Part shown: positions 12,844-21,534 of the stretch, piece by piece
How positions within the stretch are numbered: position 1 is the first letter of the stretch
Layout of the letters: the number at the start of each line of letters is the position of its first letter
DNA from: Chloroflexota bacterium
GTDB lineage: Bacteria > Chloroflexota > Limnocylindria > Limnocylindrales > Limnocylindraceae
Direction: 5' to 3'
DNA: 41,253 nt
NCBI GenBank assembly: GCA_041180765.1
Contig: JBEGQU010000023.1
Span: 1 to 41,253 of the forward strand
Position numbers and translations under genes: made by a program
The notes under the pieces: generated by a model
Databases searched by the model: none
What the model was told of the DNA's origin: nothing
What the model saw: only the letters and a program-made list of their open reading frames with translations

Positions 12844-13743
12844 GTGAAGATCGGTTTCATCGGCCTCGGCAAGATGGGTGGCAACATGGTGAAGCGCCTC
12901 GTGCGCGGCGGCCACGAGGTGGTCATCTGGAACCGCTCGCGCGAGAAGACCGACGAGATCGCCAAGGAGGGCGCGAAGCCGACCTACGAGGTGAAGGATC
13001 TCGTCGCCAGCCTCGAGGCGCCGCGCCGCGTCTGGGTGATGGTCCCGAGCGGCGACGCCACCGAGGCGATGATCGACGAGCTGATCCCCCTGCTCGCGAA
13101 GGGCGACACGATCATCGACGGCGGGAACTCCAACTTCCACGACACGATCCGCCGCCACGAGAAGCTCGCGGCGCACGGCATCTCGTTCATCGACGCCGGC
13201 ACCTCGGGTGGCGTGTGGGGGCTCGAGAACGGCTACTGCATGATGGTCGGCGGCGATGCCGCCCCGGTGAAGGCGCTGGAGCCGATCTTCTCGACGCTCG
13301 CGCCGAAGGACGGCTACCTGCACTGCGGCGGCCCGGGAGCCGGGCACTACGTGAAGATGGTGCACAACGGGATCGAGTACGGGATGATGCAGGCCTACGC
13401 CGAGGGCTTCGAGATCCTCGCCAAGTCGCGCTACGACCTCGACCTCGCCAAGGTGAGCGACCTCTGGATGCAGGGCTCCGTCGTCCGCAGCTGGCTCCTG
13501 GAGCTCGCCGGACGCGCCTTCCGCGCCGAGGGGAGCGACCTGAAGGGGATCAAGGGCTGGGTCGCCGACTCCGGCGAGGGGCGCTGGACCGTGCAGGAGG
13601 CGATCGACCTCGACGTCCCGGCGCCGGTCATCACCCTCTCGCTGCTGACGCGCTTCCGCTCGCGGCAGGAGGACTCGTACTCGGCCAAGGTCCTCGCCGC
13701 ACTGCGGAACCAGTTCGGCGGCCACGCGGTGAAGTCCGAGTGA
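12844..13743 (+). CDS. gnd: 6-phosphogluconate dehydrogenase, short decarboxylating form
   Basis: VKIGFIGLGKMGGNM.., ..IDGGNS.., ..GAGHYVKMVHNGIEYGMMQAYAEGF... GTG 12844 has AGGAGG 5 nt upstream. The track ORF from 10903 is an artefact. Confidence 0.88.
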   Translation: MKIGFIGLGKMGGNMVKRLVRGGHEVVIWNRSREKTDEIAKEGAKPTYEVKDLVASLEAPRRVWVMVPSGDATEAMIDELIPLLAKGDTIIDGGNSNFHDTIRRHEKLAAHGISFIDAGTSGGVWGLENGYCMMVGGDAAPVKALEPIFSTLAPKDGYLHCGGPGAGHYVKMVHNGIEYGMMQAYAEGFEILAKSRYDLDLAKVSDLWMQGSVVRSWLLELAGRAFRAEGSDLKGIKGWVADSGEGRWTVQEAIDLDVPAPVITLSLLTRFRSRQEDSYSAKVLAALRNQFGGHAVKSE

Positions 13744-15356
13744 CCAGCCCCAAGGGGGGCGACGCCAGCGCGACGATCCGCGAGCTCCGCCTCGGCAAGC
13801 GACAGCGCCGATCCCCGCAGCGACGGGCGACCAAGAACCCGCTCCGCGCCGGCCTACGCCTCGAGCGCATCCCCGATGCGAACATCGTCGTGCTCTTCGG
13901 CGCGACCGGCGACCTCGCGCACCGCAAGGTCGTCCCGGCGCTCTATCACCTCTGGGCTGCTGGACTGCTCCCCGAGCGGTTCGCCCTCGTCTGCTTCGGG
14001 CGACGCGATGCGGACGACGCCTCGATGCGCGCCGACCTGCGCACATCGCTCGACAAGCACGCCCGCGTCCGCCCCGTCGACGAGGAGACCTGGGCCGCCT
14101 TCGCCGCGCGCATCAGCTACTTCAAGGGGGGCTTCGGCGACCCCGCCTCCTACGCCGCGCTGGCCAGGCGCCTCGACGAGATCGATGCCGCCGCCGGAAC
14201 CGAGGGGAACCGCCTCTTCTACCTCGCGACCCCGGCATCCTCGTTCCCGGAGATCGTCCGCGGGCTCGGCGGCGCCGGCCTCGACCACGAGACCGCCGAG
14301 GGCGGCTGGCGCCGGATCGTCATCGAGAAGCCGTTCGGGCGCGACCTCGACACGGCGGTGCGCCTCAACCGCGAGGTCGGCAAGGTCTTCCGCGAGAGCC
14401 AGGTCTACCGCATCGACCACTACCTGGGGAAGGAGACGGTGCGCAACATCCTCATCTTCCGCTTCGGCAACCTGATCTTCGAACCGATCTGGCACCGGCG
14501 CTACATCGACCACGTGCAGATCACCGTCGCCGAGTCGATCGGGGTCGAGGGACGCGGCGCCTTCTACGAGGAGACCGGGGCGCTGCGCGACATCCTCCAG
14601 AACCACCTGCTCCAGTTGCTCACGCTCGTCGCCATGGAGCCGCCGGCGACGCTCGAGGCCGACTCGCTCCGCGACGAGAAGGTGAAGGTGCTCCGCGCCG
14701 TGCGCCCGATCCCGGCCGACGCGGTCGACGCCTCGGTCGTCCGTGGCCAGTACGGTCCCGGCTGGGTCGGCGCCACCGAGGTCGCCGGCTACCGCGGCGA
14801 ACCGTCGGTGGACCCGGCGTCCGAGACGGAGACCTTCGTCGCCGCGAGGCTCGAGATCGACGACTGGCGCTGGGCCGGCGTGCCGTTCTACCTGCGCGCG
14901 GGGAAGCGCCTGCCGAAGCGGGCCACCGAGATCGCGATCCAGTTCAAGGACGTGCCGCAGCGACTCTTCGCGCCGCTCGGCGGCGACCCCGAGGCGAACC
15001 TCCTGGTGATCCGCATCCAGCCGGACGAGGGGATCCTGCTCCGCTTCGCGGCCAAGGTGCCGGGCCTCGGGGTCGACGTCCGCCCGGTGAACATGGACTT
15101 CGCCTACGGCTCGGCGTTCACCGTCGACAGCCCCGATGCATACGAGACCCTGATCCTCGACGCCCTGCTCGGCGACGCCTCCCTCTTCACCCGCGCCGAC
15201 GAGGTCGAGGCGGCGTGGAAGATCGTCGACCCGATCATCGAGAGCTGGATCGCCGGTGCCGAGCCGAACCTGCCGAACTACGCCGCCGGAACCTGGGGAC
15301 CAGAGGCGGCCGACGAGCTCCTCACCCGCGAGGGGCGGCGCTGGCGGCGCCTCTAG
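13740..15356 (+). CDS. zwf: Glucose-6-phosphate 1-dehydrogenase
   Basis: ..NPLR..LERIP..VLFGATGDLAHRKVVPALY.., ..RIDHYLGKE.., ..LRDILQNHLLQLL... GTG 13740 overlaps the gnd stop (GTGA). No later in-frame start precedes the GATGDL motif. Confidence 0.92.
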   Translation: MTSPKGGDASATIRELRLGKRQRRSPQRRATKNPLRAGLRLERIPDANIVVLFGATGDLAHRKVVPALYHLWAAGLLPERFALVCFGRRDADDASMRADLRTSLDKHARVRPVDEETWAAFAARISYFKGGFGDPASYAALARRLDEIDAAAGTEGNRLFYLATPASSFPEIVRGLGGAGLDHETAEGGWRRIVIEKPFGRDLDTAVRLNREVGKVFRESQVYRIDHYLGKETVRNILIFRFGNLIFEPIWHRRYIDHVQITVAESIGVEGRGAFYEETGALRDILQNHLLQLLTLVAMEPPATLEADSLRDEKVKVLRAVRPIPADAVDASVVRGQYGPGWVGATEVAGYRGEPSVDPASETETFVAARLEIDDWRWAGVPFYLRAGKRLPKRATEIAIQFKDVPQRLFAPLGGDPEANLLVIRIQPDEGILLRFAAKVPGLGVDVRPVNMDFAYGSAFTVDSPDAYETLILDALLGDASLFTRADEVEAAWKIVDPIIESWIAGAEPNLPNYAAGTWGPEAADELLTREGRRWRRL

Positions 15357-15359
15357 CCG

Positions 15360-16517
15360 ATGGGCCTCACCGGCACGCTCCTCAGCACGCTCCGCTGGAG
15401 TTCGGACGCAACCACCGTCGCAGAGGCCGATGCGCTCCTCTCGCGCCTCTGGGCGAGCGCCGACGCCCGGAGCGCGCTGACCCCGGGCAGCGAGGCGGCG
15501 GTGCGCACCGGCGTGATGAACCTCGTCGTCGTCGCGACGGGAGAGGAGCGCGCCGCCCACGCAGCCGCCACGCTCCAGACCCTCCAGCGCAACCCGTCGC
15601 GCACGCTCTTCATCGTGCCCCGCGACCCAGAGGGGCCGGCCGCCTTCAAGGCCCACCTCGAGGTCTTCTGCGCCGTCACGCCCCGCGGCGACGGCACGGC
15701 CGCCTGCACGGAGCTGCTCTGGATCGACGCCGGCGGGCCCGTGGCACGTCACCTCACCAGCGTCATCGCGCCACTGGCGCTCCATGACCTGCCGACGCTC
15801 CTCTGGTGGGATGCGCCGCTCGACCCAACGAATGCCGACCTGCGACAGATGCTGCGCGGCATCGACCGGGTAATGTTCGACGGCTCGACGCAGCCCGGGA
15901 GCGGCCTCGAGACGCTGCGCCACCTGCTCGATGCCGCCGGCCAGTCGGGCAGCGCCGTCTCGGACTTCTCCCTGATCCGCCAGGGCCGCTGGCGCGACGC
16001 AGTCGCCTCGATGTTCGACGAGCCGGCGGCAGCACCGTTCCTCGGCGCGATCGCCGAGATCGAGATCGAGTACGCCGGCGCGCCGGGGAACCACGGCCCG
16101 GTGAACATCGTCAAGCCGCTCTACCACGTCGCCTGGCTGGCCTCGCGCCTGCAGGCGCGCGTCGACGCACCGCTCGAACCCGGATCTCGTGGCTGGTCGG
16201 CGAGGCTCGTCGACGCCCTGGGGCACCCGATCGACGTTCGCCTGGTGCCCACCGATCGACCGACGCGCCCGGGCACGACCCAGCGCGTGACGATCGGGGC
16301 GCGGCGTCGTGGCGCCGAGGCGCGGCTCGACGTGGTCGCCGACGGGAAGACGACGACGGGACGGCTGCACGTCGACGGCGCGCCGGTGCGCGAACGGGTC
16401 TTCTCCGCCCCTCGCGCCACCGAGGCGTCGCTCCTCGGCGAATCGCTCGAACTCGGCGAGATCGACCCGCTCTCGCCGGCGATCCTGCGCGCTGCGGCGG
16501 CGCTCATCGGCACATGA
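15360..16517 (+). CDS. opcA: Glucose-6-phosphate dehydrogenase assembly protein OpcA
   Basis: Sits immediately after zwf, with OpcA-like size and N-terminal pattern (..RTGVMNLVVV..). Called from synteny and overall similarity as I remember the family. Confidence 0.8.
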   Translation: MGLTGTLLSTLRWSSDATTVAEADALLSRLWASADARSALTPGSEAAVRTGVMNLVVVATGEERAAHAAATLQTLQRNPSRTLFIVPRDPEGPAAFKAHLEVFCAVTPRGDGTAACTELLWIDAGGPVARHLTSVIAPLALHDLPTLLWWDAPLDPTNADLRQMLRGIDRVMFDGSTQPGSGLETLRHLLDAAGQSGSAVSDFSLIRQGRWRDAVASMFDEPAAAPFLGAIAEIEIEYAGAPGNHGPVNIVKPLYHVAWLASRLQARVDAPLEPGSRGWSARLVDALGHPIDVRLVPTDRPTRPGTTQRVTIGARRRGAEARLDVVADGKTTTGRLHVDGAPVRERVFSAPRATEASLLGESLELGEIDPLSPAILRAAAALIGT

Positions 16518-17299
16518 GCGGCGAGCGCGTTTGCATCCTGGCCGACGCGCCGGCCCTCGCCGAGGCGGCGGCGGAGCTGGTGGTGGCGAGCGCCTGCGCC
16601 GCGGTGGAGGCGCGCGGCCGCTTCGACCTCTGCACCACCGGGGGTTCTACCCCCGCAGCGCTCTACGCCGCCCTTCGCATGCCGGAACGCTCGTCGCGCA
16701 TGCCGTGGCAGGCGACGCATGTCTGGTTCGGCGACGATCGCCTGGTGCCGCGGCACGACACGCGGTCGAACCTCGCCCCGGTCGATGCCGTGCTCCTGGC
16801 CCCCGGTCCCGACGGCAGTCCGTCGCCGATGCCGGCGGACGCGGTGCACCCCTGGCCGACCGGTGCCGACTCGGGTGACCGCGCCGTTGCCGGCTACCTC
16901 GCCGAGCTCTCCGGCTCCGGCCTGATCGGCGCCGCAGGCAGCCAGCCGGTCTTCGATCTCGTGCTCCTCGGCGTCGGCGGCGACGGGCACTGCCTGAGCG
17001 TCTTCCCCGGTTCGCCGCTCGCGCAGGCGGACGCCCCGGTCGCCGCCGCCGTCCCGGCCCCGACGCACATCGAGCCCCACGTGGCGCGACTCTCCTTCTC
17101 GCTCGGGGTGCTCCGCAGCGCCAGGTCGGTCTGCGTCCTCGCACCCGGCGCAGCGAAAGCCGAGATCCTGGCGAGGGTGCTCGACGGCGGCGTCGACCTG
17201 GCAGGCGGCATCGGTGAGCTCCCGGCGCGCGCGGCCCGCATCGCCACGGCGACCTGGCTCCTCGACCGGGAGTCGGCCGCCCGCATCACGGCACGCTGA
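16514..17299 (+). CDS. pgl: 6-phosphogluconolactonase
   Basis: ..LCTTGGSTPAALY.., ..HVWFGDDR.., ..FDLVLLGVGGDGHCLSVFPGSP... The ATG overlaps the opcA stop (ATGA). Confidence 0.85.
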   Translation: MSGERVCILADAPALAEAAAELVVASACAAVEARGRFDLCTTGGSTPAALYAALRMPERSSRMPWQATHVWFGDDRLVPRHDTRSNLAPVDAVLLAPGPDGSPSPMPADAVHPWPTGADSGDRAVAGYLAELSGSGLIGAAGSQPVFDLVLLGVGGDGHCLSVFPGSPLAQADAPVAAAVPAPTHIEPHVARLSFSLGVLRSARSVCVLAPGAAKAEILARVLDGGVDLAGGIGELPARAARIATATWLLDRESAARITAR

Positions 17300-18038
17300 T
17301 CCCCCACTTCGCGCCGAGGGCGCGCGTCGCCGCCTGGCGCTCGGTTGCGGTCAAGATCCTGTTCCAGGCGAGCGCCTCCATGATGCCGCCGGTGAAGCGC
17401 CGCTGGCCGCCCGCCAGCGCGATCCCGCCGAGCAGGTCGACGGTCGACGTCGGCGTCGCCGTGAACAGCGCATCGAAGCCGTTGTTGATCGTCGCGGAGT
17501 CATAGCCCGTCGTGTAGAAGCGAACGGTGAGGATCCTGTCGCCGGCGAGCGTGCCGAGCAGCGGCGACACGGCGCTCGTGCCGCTGTACCAACAGCGGAT
17601 CCGCCCCTCCTCGACGGCGAACCCCTCGGCCGCGGCGGAAGAGCCCAGGAGCGGGTAGGTCCCGGTCGCCGCCGGGAAGCGCAGCACCGCGATGAAGGTG
17701 AGCGGCTCGATGCGGATCGGCGCGGGGAGCGCGAGCAGGGCATCGCTCATGGCCACCTGCGCCCGTCCCGCCAGCGCGGTGGCATACGGCGGACTCCCGG
17801 CGGCGCTCGGGCGCGCACCGCGGCCGGCGACCGCCTTGTCGAACCAGAAGCGCAGGTGCGGCGCAAGCCCCATGGTCGCCGGCTCGGCCGCGTCGTACCA
17901 GAAGAGCAGCCCGCTCGCGACGTTGCCCGGGGCGGACCAGGCGCCGCTCGCGATCGGCAACTCGACGGGTGCGGTCCACCGGGCCCCCGCCGTGGCGAGC
18001 GCGACCACGGCGGCGAGGAGCAGGGCGCGCCGCCTCAC
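17286..18038 (-). CDS. Secreted LamG/concanavalin-A-like lectin-fold protein (accessory gene of the TasA-like module)
   Basis: GTG 18038 overlaps the peptidase stop (GTGA). Sec-type signal VRRRALLLAAVVALATAGA. The C-terminus ..RFTGGIMEALAWNRILTATERQA.. resembles the end of a Laminin_G_3 domain. The track ORF up to 18656 is an out-of-gene extension. Confidence 0.6.
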   Translation of the reverse strand: MRRRALLLAAVVALATAGARWTAPVELPIASGAWSAPGNVASGLLFWYDAAEPATMGLAPHLRFWFDKAVAGRGARPSAAGSPPYATALAGRAQVAMSDALLALPAPIRIEPLTFIAVLRFPAATGTYPLLGSSAAAEGFAVEEGRIRCWYSGTSAVSPLLGTLAGDRILTVRFYTTGYDSATINNGFDALFTATPTSTVDLLGGIALAGGQRRFTGGIMEALAWNRILTATERQAATRALGAKWGISVP

Positions 18039-18898
18039 GGGCCCCAGAGGAGCGGCAGGGTGAGCGACGCCGCCTGGGCATCGAGCGCCCCGAGGAGGGT
18101 GGCGCGAAGCTCGCAGCGGGTCGCTGTGGCCAGGCCCGGCACGAGCAGCCCCGTCGACGGGAGCGCGGCGCTCCACTCTGCGGTGAAGAGATCTCCCGCC
18201 TCGCGCCATGCGGCCCCGTCCGGATCCTGGCAGCGCGCCGCAAGGCGCAGTGCACGGGCAAGGCCGGGGGCCCCGGCGAGCGGCGAGAACCTGTCCGGGT
18301 CGATCCGGAGCGACTGGGATGGGCCGCACAACGACCCCGAGGTGGCTGAGCAGGGGCGGAGGAGCAGGCTCCAGGTGGCCGTCGCGCCGGGGAGCAGCTC
18401 CCCGGCAGCGCTGCCGCCGGAGATCGACACCCCTTCGAGCGCGACCGACGCGCCGGCGGCCGCCGCGACCGAGAGGGAGAGGCTGCGCTGTGCGGCGAAT
18501 GTCGCCGTGGTCCACGCCGTGAACCGGCGCAGCACGGCTGCCAGCGGCGGGATCGCCGAGAGGGGGATCACCGCGACGAGTCGCCCGCGAACATCCGCGT
18601 CGGTGAAACGCTCGGCGTCGACCGACCGGCTGGCGTCTCCGCGCAGCAGGCGCCACCCCGCACCGTGCTCGACCACGCGGTGCAGCAGCAGCGTCTGGTC
18701 GGGATCATGGCGGGCGACGAGCAGGATGCTCCCCCGCTGCGCATCGATCGCCGTCGCGGCGACCGTGACGGCAACGTCCCCCGAGCGGAGGCTCGGTGCC
18801 ATCGACTCGCCGACGACGAGCACGATGCGCAGGCCCAGCCCCGCCGCCGCGAGCGCGGCCACGATCACGATGCCGATCGAGAGACTCCGTCTGCGCAC
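18035..18898 (-). CDS. SipW/ER-type signal peptidase I (S26B) fused to a C-terminal TasA-like domain
   Basis: N-terminal TM helix, then GESMAPSL (Ser box), LLLHRVVE (His box) and RGDASRSVD (GDxx..D box), which is the Ser/His ER-type pattern. Residues from about 130 to 287 begin TTATFAAQRSLS..AGASVALEG.. and resemble the neighbouring TasA-like protein. The GTG start shares 1 nt with the upstream stop (TAGTG). Confidence 0.7.
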   Translation of the reverse strand: MRRRSLSIGIVIVAALAAAGLGLRIVLVVGESMAPSLRSGDVAVTVAATAIDAQRGSILLVARHDPDQTLLLHRVVEHGAGWRLLRGDASRSVDAERFTDADVRGRLVAVIPLSAIPPLAAVLRRFTAWTTATFAAQRSLSLSVAAAAGASVALEGVSISGGSAAGELLPGATATWSLLLRPCSATSGSLCGPSQSLRIDPDRFSPLAGAPGLARALRLAARCQDPDGAAWREAGDLFTAEWSAALPSTGLLVPGLATATRCELRATLLGALDAQAASLTLPLLWGP

Positions 18899-19518
18899 TA
18901 CGCGGTGATGTTGCGCGCCTCGAAGAGGAGCGTCAGGGACACCGACGATCCCGCCCCGCTGGTCGCAGACGCAGGGAGCGAGAGCTCGAACACGTAGCGT
19001 GCGGAGGCCGCCGTGGCCCCCGAAGAGCCCGAGCCGTTGATGGAGCGCCAGGTCGTGCCGATCGGCGCCGTGAAGCGGTCGAGGCCAGCGAGCGCGGCGA
19101 CGGTGCCGTCGTACAGGACGGTGCTGGTCCCACCGCCGACCGAGCGCGTGATGCGCAGGCGGAGCACCGCCGCGAGGCTATCGCTTGCGAGCGGGGTGCT
19201 GCCGAGGCTCGCGTAGAGGGCGATCTCCGTCTGGTTCGTCGGCACGGTCACCGTCGACTGGTTCAGGACGGTCAGGGTCTGGCTGAAGCTGGCCCCGGGC
19301 CCGATCGCCGCAAGGTCCGCGCCACTGAACTCGAGGCGCTGCAGGCCACCGGTATCGAGCGCCACCGTCCCCGCGCTCGCCGCGGCAGAGAGTGGCCGGA
19401 TGTCGGAGAAGGCGGCGGTGGTCCGACCGACCGTGGCGCCGCCGGCGAAGATGACCCCCGCCGCCGCCAGCAGGCGGACCGCCCGGCGAGTGCCCGATCG
19501 TGAAACGCTCTTGCCCAT
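18898..19518 (-). CDS. TasA/camelysin-like secreted protein with a SipW-cognate-type signal peptide
   Basis: MGKSVSRSGTRRAVRLLAAAGVIFAGGATVGRTTAAFSD.. (basic n-region, hydrophobic core, TxAxFSD motif), then ..AGTVALD.., ..IGPGASFSQTLTVLNQS.., ..LTLLFEARN... AGGAGA lies upstream of ATG 19518. Confidence 0.65.
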   Translation of the reverse strand: MGKSVSRSGTRRAVRLLAAAGVIFAGGATVGRTTAAFSDIRPLSAAASAGTVALDTGGLQRLEFSGADLAAIGPGASFSQTLTVLNQSTVTVPTNQTEIALYASLGSTPLASDSLAAVLRLRITRSVGGGTSTVLYDGTVAALAGLDRFTAPIGTTWRSINGSGSSGATAASARYVFELSLPASATSGAGSSVSLTLLFEARNITA

Positions 19519-19591: not shown

Positions 19592-20725
19592 CTAGTACTG
19601 CGGGAGCGGGACCTCCTCCGGCACCCAGTCGCTGCCGACCAGGTCGATATCGGGCGGCCAGTGTGCGCTGGCCAGCGCGTAGATCGCTTGATCGACATAG
19701 GCGCTCACGGGGTCGAGGCTGATGACGATCCCCACCGCCTGGGCATCGGAACCCGTCACCTCGACGGCCGCTTCGTCGATCGCGAAGAGGCCAGGGCCGG
19801 CACTTGGCCAGAGGGAACCATTCCACTGGTTGAGGGCCCAGGCGATCGTCCCCTCATCGAACTCCGAGAGCCCCGCCTCCAGATAGCGGGCGCTGCACCC
19901 CTGGAGATCGTCGCGACATCCGACCGTGGTTGCGGCGAGCGCGACGAGCGCTGCGGCTGCGGCGATCTGCCCGTCCTCGGATGCGATCGAGGCGGCGCTG
20001 GCCCAGAGGCCGAGTCCTCCGGCGCGGCCGCCGGTCATCGGCAGCCAGGTGAAGCTGTCCGCCCCGTAGGCAACGCCGTTCTCGTCGGCCGACTGGAGAA
20101 TGCGCGGCAGGCCGTCGGACGAGCGCGTGTACACCGCGTCAAACGTCCCGTCAGCGAGCATCGCCGGATCGAACGGCACCGCGGTGTCGGTCGAGTAGGT
20201 CAGCACGATGTCTCCGGTGTCGATCCCGGCCCCCTGCAGCGTGGCACGGAGGGCGTGCTCGTCGCCGGGGAAGCCGTCGACATAGATGTTCGAGCCCGCG
20301 AGGCTATTGAGCGATGTCCGGGTGCGCGAAACGACCCCCCAAGAGGTCAAGTGCTCAAGCGACGCGACGTAGACAAGGTCGGCGCCCTGCTCCCTGGCGC
20401 GGAGGGCGGTTGCTGTGTCGAGGGCGTAAAGGTCGACGACATCGGTACGACCTGAGGGGGTGAAGGCGCCGTCGGGACTGCCGAGCGGGATCGCGCTCAC
20501 GGTGACCTTGTTGGCCGCGAGGAGGCCGAGCTGCGAGATCGCCGCGAACGGGGCGAACATCGCCCCGGCTGAGCCCGGAAGCCGGATGGCTACGGTCATC
20601 GCCGACTTCGGTACAAGGTCGGCCACGATCGACGAGGGGGTCGGGGTCGGCGAGGGACCGAGCGCCGGACGGCAGGCCGATGCGACCACGAGCAACGAGA
20701 TCGCGACGGCGAGGCGTCGAATCAT
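19592..20725 (-). CDS. Lipoprotein, NMT1/THI5-like (NitT/TauT-type) periplasmic substrate-binding protein, with no cognate permease nearby
   Basis: Lipobox LLVVASAC. Type-2 binding-protein pattern (..[11 protein letters not shown].., ..C.DDLQGC.., ..[22 protein letters not shown]..). ATG 20725 overlaps the pstB stop (ATGA). Confidence 0.6.
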
Positions 20726-21534
20726 CCGAAGCGGCCCGCAACGTAGTCTTCGGTGAGGCGCTGCTCCGGAGCAGTAAACATCTTCGGCGTCGGACCGCTC
20801 TCCACGAGGTATCCCGCACGATCTTCGCCCATGGTCATGAAGGCCGTCGTATCGGAGACGCGAGATGCCTGCTGCATGTTGTGGGTCACGATGACGATCG
20901 TGTACTCCTCGCGGAGAGTGCGGATGAGCTCTTCGATCTTCAGCGTGGCGATCGGGTCCAGTGCCGAGCATGGCTCATCCATGAGGATGATCTCGGGCTT
21001 CACGGCGATCGCCCGCGCGATGCACAACCGCTGCTGCTGGCCGCCGGAGAGCGAGGTACCTGGCTGATTGAGCTTGTCCTTGACCTCGTCCCAGAGGGCG
21101 GCCTTGCGCAGCGAGTCCTCGACGATCGCGGCGAGCGCTGCCTTGTTCGTCTGCCCCGCGAGCCGCAACCCGCTCACGACATTCTGGGCAATCGACATCG
21201 TCGGGAACGGATTCGGCTTCTGGAACACCATGCCGATCGACCGGCGCACGCGCACCGGATCGATCTGGGGGTCGTAGATATCCACCCCCTCGATCTCGAT
21301 CGTCCCCTCGACGCGAGCACCCGTCGTCGTCTCGTGCATCCGGTTGATCGTGCGGATCAGCGTGGACTTGCCGCAGCCCGAGGGGCCGATGAGCGCGGTG
21401 ACCGACTGCGCCGCCACCTCGAGGGAAACGTCCTTCACCGCGCGGAAGCTGCCGTAGTAGGCGCTGAGGCTCTTGAGGCTCAGTGCGGTCGCGGAGCCCT
21501 TCGCGGGCTTCTCGGTACGGCTCTTGGCAGACAT
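20722..21534 (-). CDS. pstB: Phosphate ABC transporter ATP-binding protein
   Basis: ..[16 protein letters not shown].., [51 protein letters not shown] lies upstream. Confidence 0.95.

Follow-up and report, generated by a model that had tools for sequence, protein, structure and literature searches.

Why would a signal peptidase carry, at its C terminus, a domain that begins like the protein it is expected to cleave? This question is raised by a group of genes on the minus strand of a 41,253-nucleotide contig from a Chloroflexota bacterium of the family Limnocylindraceae (GenBank accession number JBEGQU010000023.1, assembly GCA_041180765.1), the whole of which is referred to here as the window. 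One of these genes (18035..18898; 287 aa) encodes a predicted SipW/SEC11-like signal peptidase with an additional 158-aa domain (the C-domain), and its neighbor, gene A (18898..19518), encodes a secreted TasA-like subunit as a 206-aa precursor. An earlier note on this DNA had proposed that the C-domain is a paralogue of the subunit, cleavage motif included. As detailed below, the fusion is real and old, and the mimicry of the subunit at the start of the C-domain can be regarded as established by sequence comparison. By analogy with Bacillus subtilis TapA, the C-domain may be a built-in TapA-like module that nucleates and/or anchors the fiber, a reading to which we assign a probability of roughly 45%.

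The peptidase fusion and its C-terminal domain

The peptides quoted in the earlier note are all present in the window, those of the C-domain (18038..18511, minus strand) as residues 130 to 287 of the 287-aa open reading frame (ORF) and those of the neighbor in the ORF at 18898-19518. Nine database homologues or protein clusters of 282 to 307 aa, with 38 to 98% identity, cover the fusion over its full length, and matches running through its last residue (287) are found in 16 GTDB species-representative genomes. One uninterrupted ORF is seen in 13 of the 13 loci translated from these genomes and in the four contigs compared for gene order. The 16 genomes are mostly metagenome-assembled genomes (MAGs) labelled “Ca. 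Limnocylindrus,” “Ca. Aquidulcis,” or Chloroflexi/Chloroflexota, with two titled generically “bacterium,” and all relatives found belong to the class Limnocylindria of Chloroflexota. The search for other S26B peptidases with this domain, which had been suggested in the earlier note, retrieves fusions from Limnocylindria, and we conclude that the fusion is real and old.

Three database records call for separate comment. P0023 (256 aa) diverges within the C-domain as if frameshifted, and P0021 (82 aa) combines a foreign N terminus with the last 50 residues of the C-domain; both are probably artifacts of assembly or gene calling. The MAG that contains contig CAMAXG010000004.1 (L005) bears the title “Thermoflexus hugenholtzii JAD2 isolate MH-08apr19-222,” but its operon hardly differs from those of “Ca. 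Limnocylindrus” and “Ca. Aquidulcis,” and the organism name is probably wrong.

Judging from profile and structural comparisons, the N-terminal half of the fusion is a divergent signal peptidase of the endoplasmic reticulum (ER)/archaeal type (S26B, SipW/SEC11-like). It starts with a membrane anchor (SLSIGIVIVAALAAAGLGLRIVL, residues 5 to 27; 18818..18886, minus strand), which has a KD19 hydropathy maximum of 2.59; the AlphaFold2 (AF2) model has a helix at residues 2 to 20. The catalytic domain that follows (residues 28 to 113; 18560..18817, minus strand) is recognized by its triad, profile, and Foldseek matches. The catalytic residues, Ser32 (18803-18805, in GESMAP), His73 (18680-18682, in LLHRV), and Asp88 (18635-18637, in GDAS), are invariant in an alignment of 10 sequences, with His rather than Lys in the HR box. 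A search of the PDB with the peptidase family profile leads to human SEC11A/C (E value of 1.7e-4), aligning GESMAP with SGSMEP, LLHRV with IVHRV, and KGDAS with KGDNN, and the best Foldseek match of the AF2 model of the fusion is SEC11A (E value of 5e-3, probability of 1.0), followed by SEC11C, SipA, and SpsB. Because the Ser, His, and Asp residues are invariant and aligned with the SEC11 triad, the enzyme looks active. Its scores stay below the curated cutoffs of both TIGR02228 (32.8 bits versus 51.85) and the Pfam S26 family PF10502 (18.5 versus 22.9), which marks it as a divergent member of the family. Pfam S24 is likewise matched only beneath its cutoff.

The C-domain itself is β-rich in the AF2 model; the model has about 11 strands and 2 short helices in this region, at a predicted local distance difference test (pLDDT) score of 68 for the full-length protein. 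The domain is recognizable by the motifs LLPG, LRID..RF, LARALRI, DLFTAEWSA, CE..ATLLG, and LPL.WGP and contains four conserved Cys residues (C183, C191, C223, and C262). The fraction of invariant columns, about 20%, equals that in the catalytic domain; this and the four cysteines indicate that the C-domain is under selection. The C-domain has no sequence match in Pfam, NCBIfam, or PDB (in a PDB profile search at E values of up to 10, TapA included), and a profile search of 1.84e9 representative proteins for a stand-alone version returned only peptidase fusions and low-complexity noise. The C-domain defines a new conserved domain family that lacks a current annotation. The earlier note was right to call the architecture unusual for an S26 peptidase: it has no counterpart in Pfam, NCBIfam, or the literature searched, nor do these sources describe any peptidase joined to a domain that resembles a subunit or mimics its strand.

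The two halves are connected by a linker (SAIPPLAAVLRRFTAW, residues 114 to 129; 18512..18559, minus strand), defined by hydropathy and by comparison of 28 homologues; in the AF2 model, it forms a 10-residue helix, after which the pLDDT falls below 50. The earlier note had seen here a transmembrane-like segment ahead of the C-domain. The corresponding stretch, IPLSAIPPLAAVLRRF, is peculiar to the lineage of the window, in which the linker is hydrophobic; the linker is short and is not conserved across the 28 homologues. In most homologues, 11 to 13 residues separate the last catalytic strand (VIPTG/S) from the start of the C-domain motif, and one clade has a His/Arg-rich linker (VIPTSHIFHAMRAAARF) with a KD19 value of about 1.0 to 1.3, which is unable to span the membrane. 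With so short a linker, polar in one clade, a second transmembrane segment before the C-domain is rejected. The inability of the His/Arg-rich linker to cross the membrane and the conserved cysteines place the C-domain on the extracellular side, adjacent to the catalytic domain. In the clade of P0002 and P0003, the linker is about 30 residues long (ending in GALFRGVATAVASAAGA, followed by TF) and resembles a degenerate signal-peptide c-region, which would be in line with the joining of a subunit precursor gene to the peptidase gene.

The subunit and the copy of its N terminus

According to sequence and structural models, gene A encodes a divergent member of the TasA-like group, as the earlier note had suggested, and its product presumably forms fibers. 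Its signal peptide (residues 1 to 35; 19414-19518, minus strand) is predicted to be cleaved in the SipW manner between A35 and A36, which puts F37 at P2′, and is followed by a donor-strand-like N terminus (AFSDIRPLSAAASAGTVA; 19360-19413, minus strand). A35, A36, and F37 are invariant in the gene A family, and the cleavage region (GRTTA before and AFSD after the cut) parallels that of TasA (GTWA and AFND; the TasA sequence was verified against PDB entry 8AUR). The best PDB match of the AF2 model of the gene A product is TasA (5OF1_A; Foldseek E value of 1e-4, probability of 1.0, TM-score of 0.41), and hhalign aligns the gene A family with TasA over 81 collinear columns beginning at the Phe residue (E value of 0.061). 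Sequence searches go no further: the Pfam family Peptidase_M73 (PF12389) is matched only below the threshold, in one of seven members (E value of 0.22), the gene A family profile retrieves close relatives only, with no bridge to the annotated TasA families, and the subunit profile finds nothing relevant among PDB sequences. A literature search found no report linking Limnocylindria with TasA. Two N-x-S/T sequons are conserved in the gene A family, N86-x-S88 (LNQST) and the C-terminal FEARN-x-T (203-205), and could be glycosylation, metal, or structural motifs.

In TasA, residues 28 to 38 serve as the donor strand by which the next subunit is completed, F29 being buried in the next subunits, and the N terminus of TapA, which nucleates fibers, resembles this strand (PMC9674648, PMC10151520). 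An aromatic residue at P2′ marks the substrates of the dedicated ER-type peptidase SipW and is absent from LepB substrates (PMC10269814). In the light of these studies, the start of the C-domain has the appearance of a SipW-type cleavage site and a donor strand at the same time. The substrate-mimic motif, defined by logo and matrix tests, spans residues 130 to 147 (TTATFAAQRSLSLSVAAA; 18458..18511, minus strand), with the would-be cleavage positions P3 at T130, P1 at A132 (18503-18505), and P2′ at F134 (18497-18499). This is the first of three alignments proposed in the earlier note (TTATFAAQRSLSLSVAAA with TTAAFSDIRPLSAAASAG and TTATFAAQRSLSLSV with TTAAFSDIRPLSAAAS), and it stands above chance. 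An 18-column ungapped matrix derived from the subunit family, covering positions -4 to +13 around the Phe residue (labelled P4 to P14′), was scanned against 28 distinct peptidase homologues. In 25 of them, the best window in the whole peptidase was the one corresponding to residues 130 to 147, at a per-window empirical P value of about 1e-5 to 5e-4. Reciprocally, a matrix built from the peptidase motif picked the mature N terminus of the subunit in 131 of 132 sequences.

The logo of three families shows a conserved core of a small residue (-4), Ala (-2), any residue, Phe (0), and Ser or Thr (+1), followed by V/I/L at +6 and Ser near +12, so that the AxF[ST] cleavage/donor-strand motif of the TasA superfamily, cut after the Ala, is present at the start of the C-domain. 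F134 is invariant (100%), and A132 is conserved at 90% or more in one comparison, with Ala at P1 in 88% of the sequences in another. Of the TTA(A/T)F motif that the earlier note saw in both proteins, this core is shared family-wide, whereas the literal TTA is specific to the lineage of the window. In the AF2 models, both the mimic motif and the subunit's own N-terminal strand come out as flexible, with pLDDT below 50. We consider the N-terminal mimicry of the subunit by the C-domain to be established at the level of sequence.

Only in the lineage of the window does the motif match the N terminus of its own subunit clearly better than non-cognate ones (local score of 43, whereas their mean is 22 and their maximum 26), which could be due to co-evolution or composition. 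There is no long identical DNA run between the two regions, so that recent gene conversion is not the cause. Features common in this lineage to the motif (18458-18511) and the subunit (19360-19424) are an Arg at +4, an L-S pair, and AG..VAL(D/E).G.

A possible built-in TapA-like module

The preferred reading of these data, that of a TapA-like module, starts from a SipW-like peptidase that has been extended by a 158-aa extracytoplasmic β-rich module. This module opens with a conserved copy of the cleavage site of the subunit and of its N-terminal strand, with Ala at P1, Phe at P2′, and about 12 similar residues. The module would remain tethered to the membrane through the enzyme, as a built-in TapA. 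At the place where new subunit N termini arise, it would either provide the first subunit with its mimic strand or swap the latter for the subunit's own strand, and such strand donation or exchange would nucleate the fiber and anchor its base. That the strand complements a subunit and that the module anchors or nucleates the fiber are both inferences. The earlier note had likewise considered a domain that stays attached as a membrane anchor for the fiber, and such an anchor is possible. A more inclusive proposal is that the enzyme, with a diverged copy of its substrate attached, serves as the processing enzyme, primer, and membrane anchor of a TasA-type donor-strand fiber, either passing freshly cut N termini to the module, as acceptor or donor, or cutting itself between A132 and T133 and thereby launching the first subunit; so comprehensive a role is possible but doubtful.

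How far the C-domain resembles the subunit past the motif bears directly on this reading. A second collinear segment (GELLPGATATWSLLLRP, residues 166 to 182; 18353..18403, minus strand) has its counterpart in the subunit segment AAIGPGASFSQTLTVLN (19261-19311). The second alignment of the earlier note (LLPGATATWSLLL with IGPGASFSQTLTV, the LLPG/IGPG segment) is suggestive, being the top-scoring window of the matrix in 15 of the 28 homologues, at a per-window P value of about 1e-3. When the subunit is tiled, tiles 1, 8, 43, and 78 fall on one diagonal, with tiles 43 and 78 in line with the N-terminal motif. A banded test for collinear matches, with the motif excluded, gives a P value of 0.003 against decoys and of 0.01 to 0.03 against composition-matched nulls.

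Several results weigh against a subunit-derived, TapA-like module. The third alignment of the earlier note, which paired ASLTLPLLWGP with VSLTLLFEARN as the C-terminal strand, does not rise above chance level (median rank of about 11 among 270 windows, P value of about 0.02). Whole-domain comparisons of the C-domain with the subunit fall short of significance in BLASTP (E value of 0.19) and in hhalign, where the E value is 0.14 for profiles of 7 and 6 sequences and 0.088 for profiles of 25 and 122 sequences, over 83 collinear columns; a column-shuffle null puts the empirical P value of the hhalign result at 0.07, and the addition of AF2 secondary structure brings no gain (E value of 0.13). With TasA itself, hhalign aligns only 5 columns of the C-domain, at an E value of 0.48. 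HMMER profiles of the 45-column N-terminal region, the full-length subunit, and the C-domain give no signal above approximately 2,200 compositionally matched six-frame decoy ORFs. In the structural searches, TasA is absent from the top 50 Foldseek matches of the full-length fusion model, which at a pLDDT of 68 is of low confidence, and the C-domain finds only weak, generic β-sandwich matches (FimA with an E value of 0.03, SUN, and carbohydrate-binding modules). The secondary-structure strings of the two proteins, compared at the collinear offset, agree at a Q3 of 0.52, which is not significant (block-shuffle P value of 0.40). On the mechanistic side, tethering at the N-terminal end may keep a strand from acting as a donor. 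Finally, all the data come from metagenome assemblies.

The gene A product offers a calibration: its relation to TasA, which is supported by structure, scores no better by sequence than the disputed relation between the C-domain and the subunit. Of the paralogy claimed in the earlier note, the copy of the cleavage site and N-terminal motif holds, whereas homology of the whole domain is not significant in BLASTP, hhalign, HMMER, or Foldseek comparisons. Homology of the C-domain to the subunit beyond the motif is plausible, at what we would call even odds or slightly better, and the module probably arose from a subunit paralogue that became fused to the peptidase.

Alternative explanations

The TapA-like reading has to be weighed, first of all, against the view that the C-domain is an unrelated lineage-specific β-sandwich that serves in substrate docking, envelope binding, or stabilization of the enzyme, with a first strand that either lies as a pseudo-substrate in the active-site groove or resembles the subunit by convergence. 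No comparison of the whole domain with the subunit, with TasA, or with known families reached significance, and the Foldseek matches are generic, as such a domain would lead one to expect. The same is true of the cysteines, four of which are conserved in the C-domain, whereas the subunit has none. Other TasA-superfamily loci also provide precedents, as they include separate “SPI-accessory” proteins and unusual architectures of the dedicated signal peptidase (preprint 10.64898/2026.01.04.697558). However, the reciprocal best-window result, retained among homologues at 38 to 50% identity, makes a chance resemblance unlikely, and the additional collinear matches (P values of 0.01 to 0.03) would not be expected from an unrelated fold. 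All told, we view an unrelated domain as unlikely, although it deserves to be taken seriously.

The self-processing suggested in the earlier note would have the enzyme cleave, in cis or in trans, between A132 and T133 and thereby free a 155-aa soluble minor subunit, primer, or cap, whose new N terminus, TF (QF or RF in relatives), would mimic the donor strand. The signal-peptidase rules are obeyed throughout the family, with Ala at P1, a small residue (A/V/T) at P3, and Phe at P2′, as in the subunit and TasA (PMC10269814). Compliance at P1 and P3 is weak evidence, however, because Ala and other small residues are abundant in a proteome encoded at 72% G+C. Several clades have a hydrophobic stretch ahead of the site, which in P0002/P0003 takes on the look of a degenerate signal-peptide c-region, and the linker and motif are flexible in the AF2 model; yet no membrane-spanning h-region precedes the site, and the His/Arg-rich clade has none whatever. 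Nor does a free-standing form of the domain with its own signal peptide occur among the 1.84e9 representative proteins searched. Enzymes of clan SF, such as LexA, UmuD, and, in vitro, LepB, are capable of self-cleavage, which counts in favor of this alternative. In LexA and UmuD (family S24), the enzyme and its own cleavage site share one chain, a parallel that matters to self-processing only, but the site is N-terminal to the catalytic domain, the catalytic residues form a Ser/Lys dyad, and the proteins are cytoplasmic; no homology beyond the shared clan fold is proposed. On balance, the release of the C-domain by self-cleavage strikes us as improbable.

The last alternative, an artifactual joining of two genes by a sequencing or assembly frameshift, which the earlier note had itself raised, is ruled out for practical purposes: apart from the frameshifted database copy P0023, which indicates that such errors occur, nothing speaks for it, and the single ORF, lacking a stop codon and an internal start or ribosome-binding-site region, recurs in 16 species-level genomes and in assemblies made independently from many samples.

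The operon and the third gene

We favor the view that the locus is a three-gene, translationally coupled operon for TasA-type fibers, comprising the subunit, its dedicated peptidase, and a LamG-fold protein. The three genes are closely packed on the minus strand of the window, whose G+C content is 72%. The GTG start codon of the peptidase gene shares one nucleotide with the TAG stop codon of gene A, and its TGA stop codon overlaps the GTG start codon of the third gene, gene C (in GTGA); such overlaps suggest coupled translation. The same order of subunit, peptidase, and LamG-type genes, with overlapping stop and start codons, is found in every locality examined. Across Limnocylindria-type genomes (loci L001 to L004), the operon is flanked by pst phosphate-transport genes (pstB) on one side and pgl-opcA-zwf on the other; in the window, the flanking regions are 13215-17299 on the plus strand and 19592-21534 on the minus strand. 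The window has an additional 459-aa ORF (19592-20971, minus strand), with a lipoprotein-like internal stretch (LLVVASAC), that separates pstB from gene A; in L001, thymidine kinase and decarboxylase genes are found in its place.

Gene C (17286..18038, minus strand), which is syntenic in all loci, encodes a 250-aa protein that is predicted to be secreted and to have a concanavalin/LamG fold. A match to Laminin_G_3 (E value of 8.4e-5) is seen in two of three gene C homologues. The predicted signal peptide, MRRRALLLAAVVALATAGA, is followed by RW, with Trp at the would-be P2′ position. Conserved in the family are an A-x-W-[ST] motif just past the h-region of the signal peptide and a C-terminal ALGAKWGISVP. 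The N terminus of gene C was also considered as another copy of the subunit motif and rejected: A-x-W-[ST] is all that they have in common, and the score with the subunit matrix is not significant. The gene C product is a candidate for a tip or adhesin component or for a second substrate of the peptidase.

Relation to known systems and implications

Among the closest parallels to this locus is the tapA-sipW-tasA operon of B. subtilis, which likewise has a dedicated Ser/His signal peptidase next to a TasA-like subunit whose cleavage site combines a P1 Ala with an aromatic P2′ residue (PMC9674648, PMC10269814). Both operons also encode an accessory secreted protein and contain overlapping genes. 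They differ in gene order, in the third gene, whose product has a LamG fold and is not TapA, and in the host phylum, Chloroflexota. SipW ends in a short C-terminal tail or transmembrane segment only, whereas the peptidase described here combines a single N-terminal transmembrane segment with a folded C-terminal domain of 158 aa. Terra et al. reportedly described a second function for the SipW tail in 2012.

The analogy of the C-domain with TapA is one of layout only: a donor-strand-like N terminus is followed by a β-sandwich in TapA and by a β-rich domain here, and TapA is encoded together with sipW. TapA is membrane or wall proximal, substoichiometric, and coexpressed with SipW (PMC9674648, PMC10151520). 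However, TapA is secreted on its own, by means of a signal peptide that SipW removes, whereas the module considered here is fused to the peptidase and shows no sequence similarity to TapA in the PDB profile search. Loci of the TasA superfamily in archaea and bacteria (AbpA/AbpB, AbpX, and Tafi) follow a similar logic, in which a major subunit goes together with a dedicated TIGR02228-type peptidase and with a component predicted to be a tip, minor, or anchor protein (PMC9245690; preprint 10.64898/2026.01.04.697558); there, the accessory, anchor, and minor components are encoded by separate genes, and the unusual peptidase has ten transmembrane helices. The use of an S26 fold in fiber assembly has a precedent in SipA/LepA of Streptococcus pyogenes (PDB entry 4N31), which is essential for pilus polymerization and is among the top structural matches of the N-terminal half of the fusion. 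SipA differs in lacking both the catalytic residues and a C-terminal domain and in acting on sortase-built pili; here, the triad is intact.

TasA-type fibers are widely used as biofilm scaffolds by bacteria and archaea, and the role of TapA is debated even in Bacillus. If the fusion of a peptidase with a substrate-mimic module is what it appears to be, it would constitute genetic evidence that processing and nucleation or anchoring take place at one site, and, under the more inclusive proposal above, it would represent a one-protein equivalent of SipW plus TapA, a new type of coupling between secretion and polymerization in monoderm-type bacteria. The fusion system could also serve as a compact two-protein set for in vitro tests of donor-strand initiation. 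For Limnocylindria, an abundant freshwater lineage that has not been cultured, the locus points to the presence of surface fibers.

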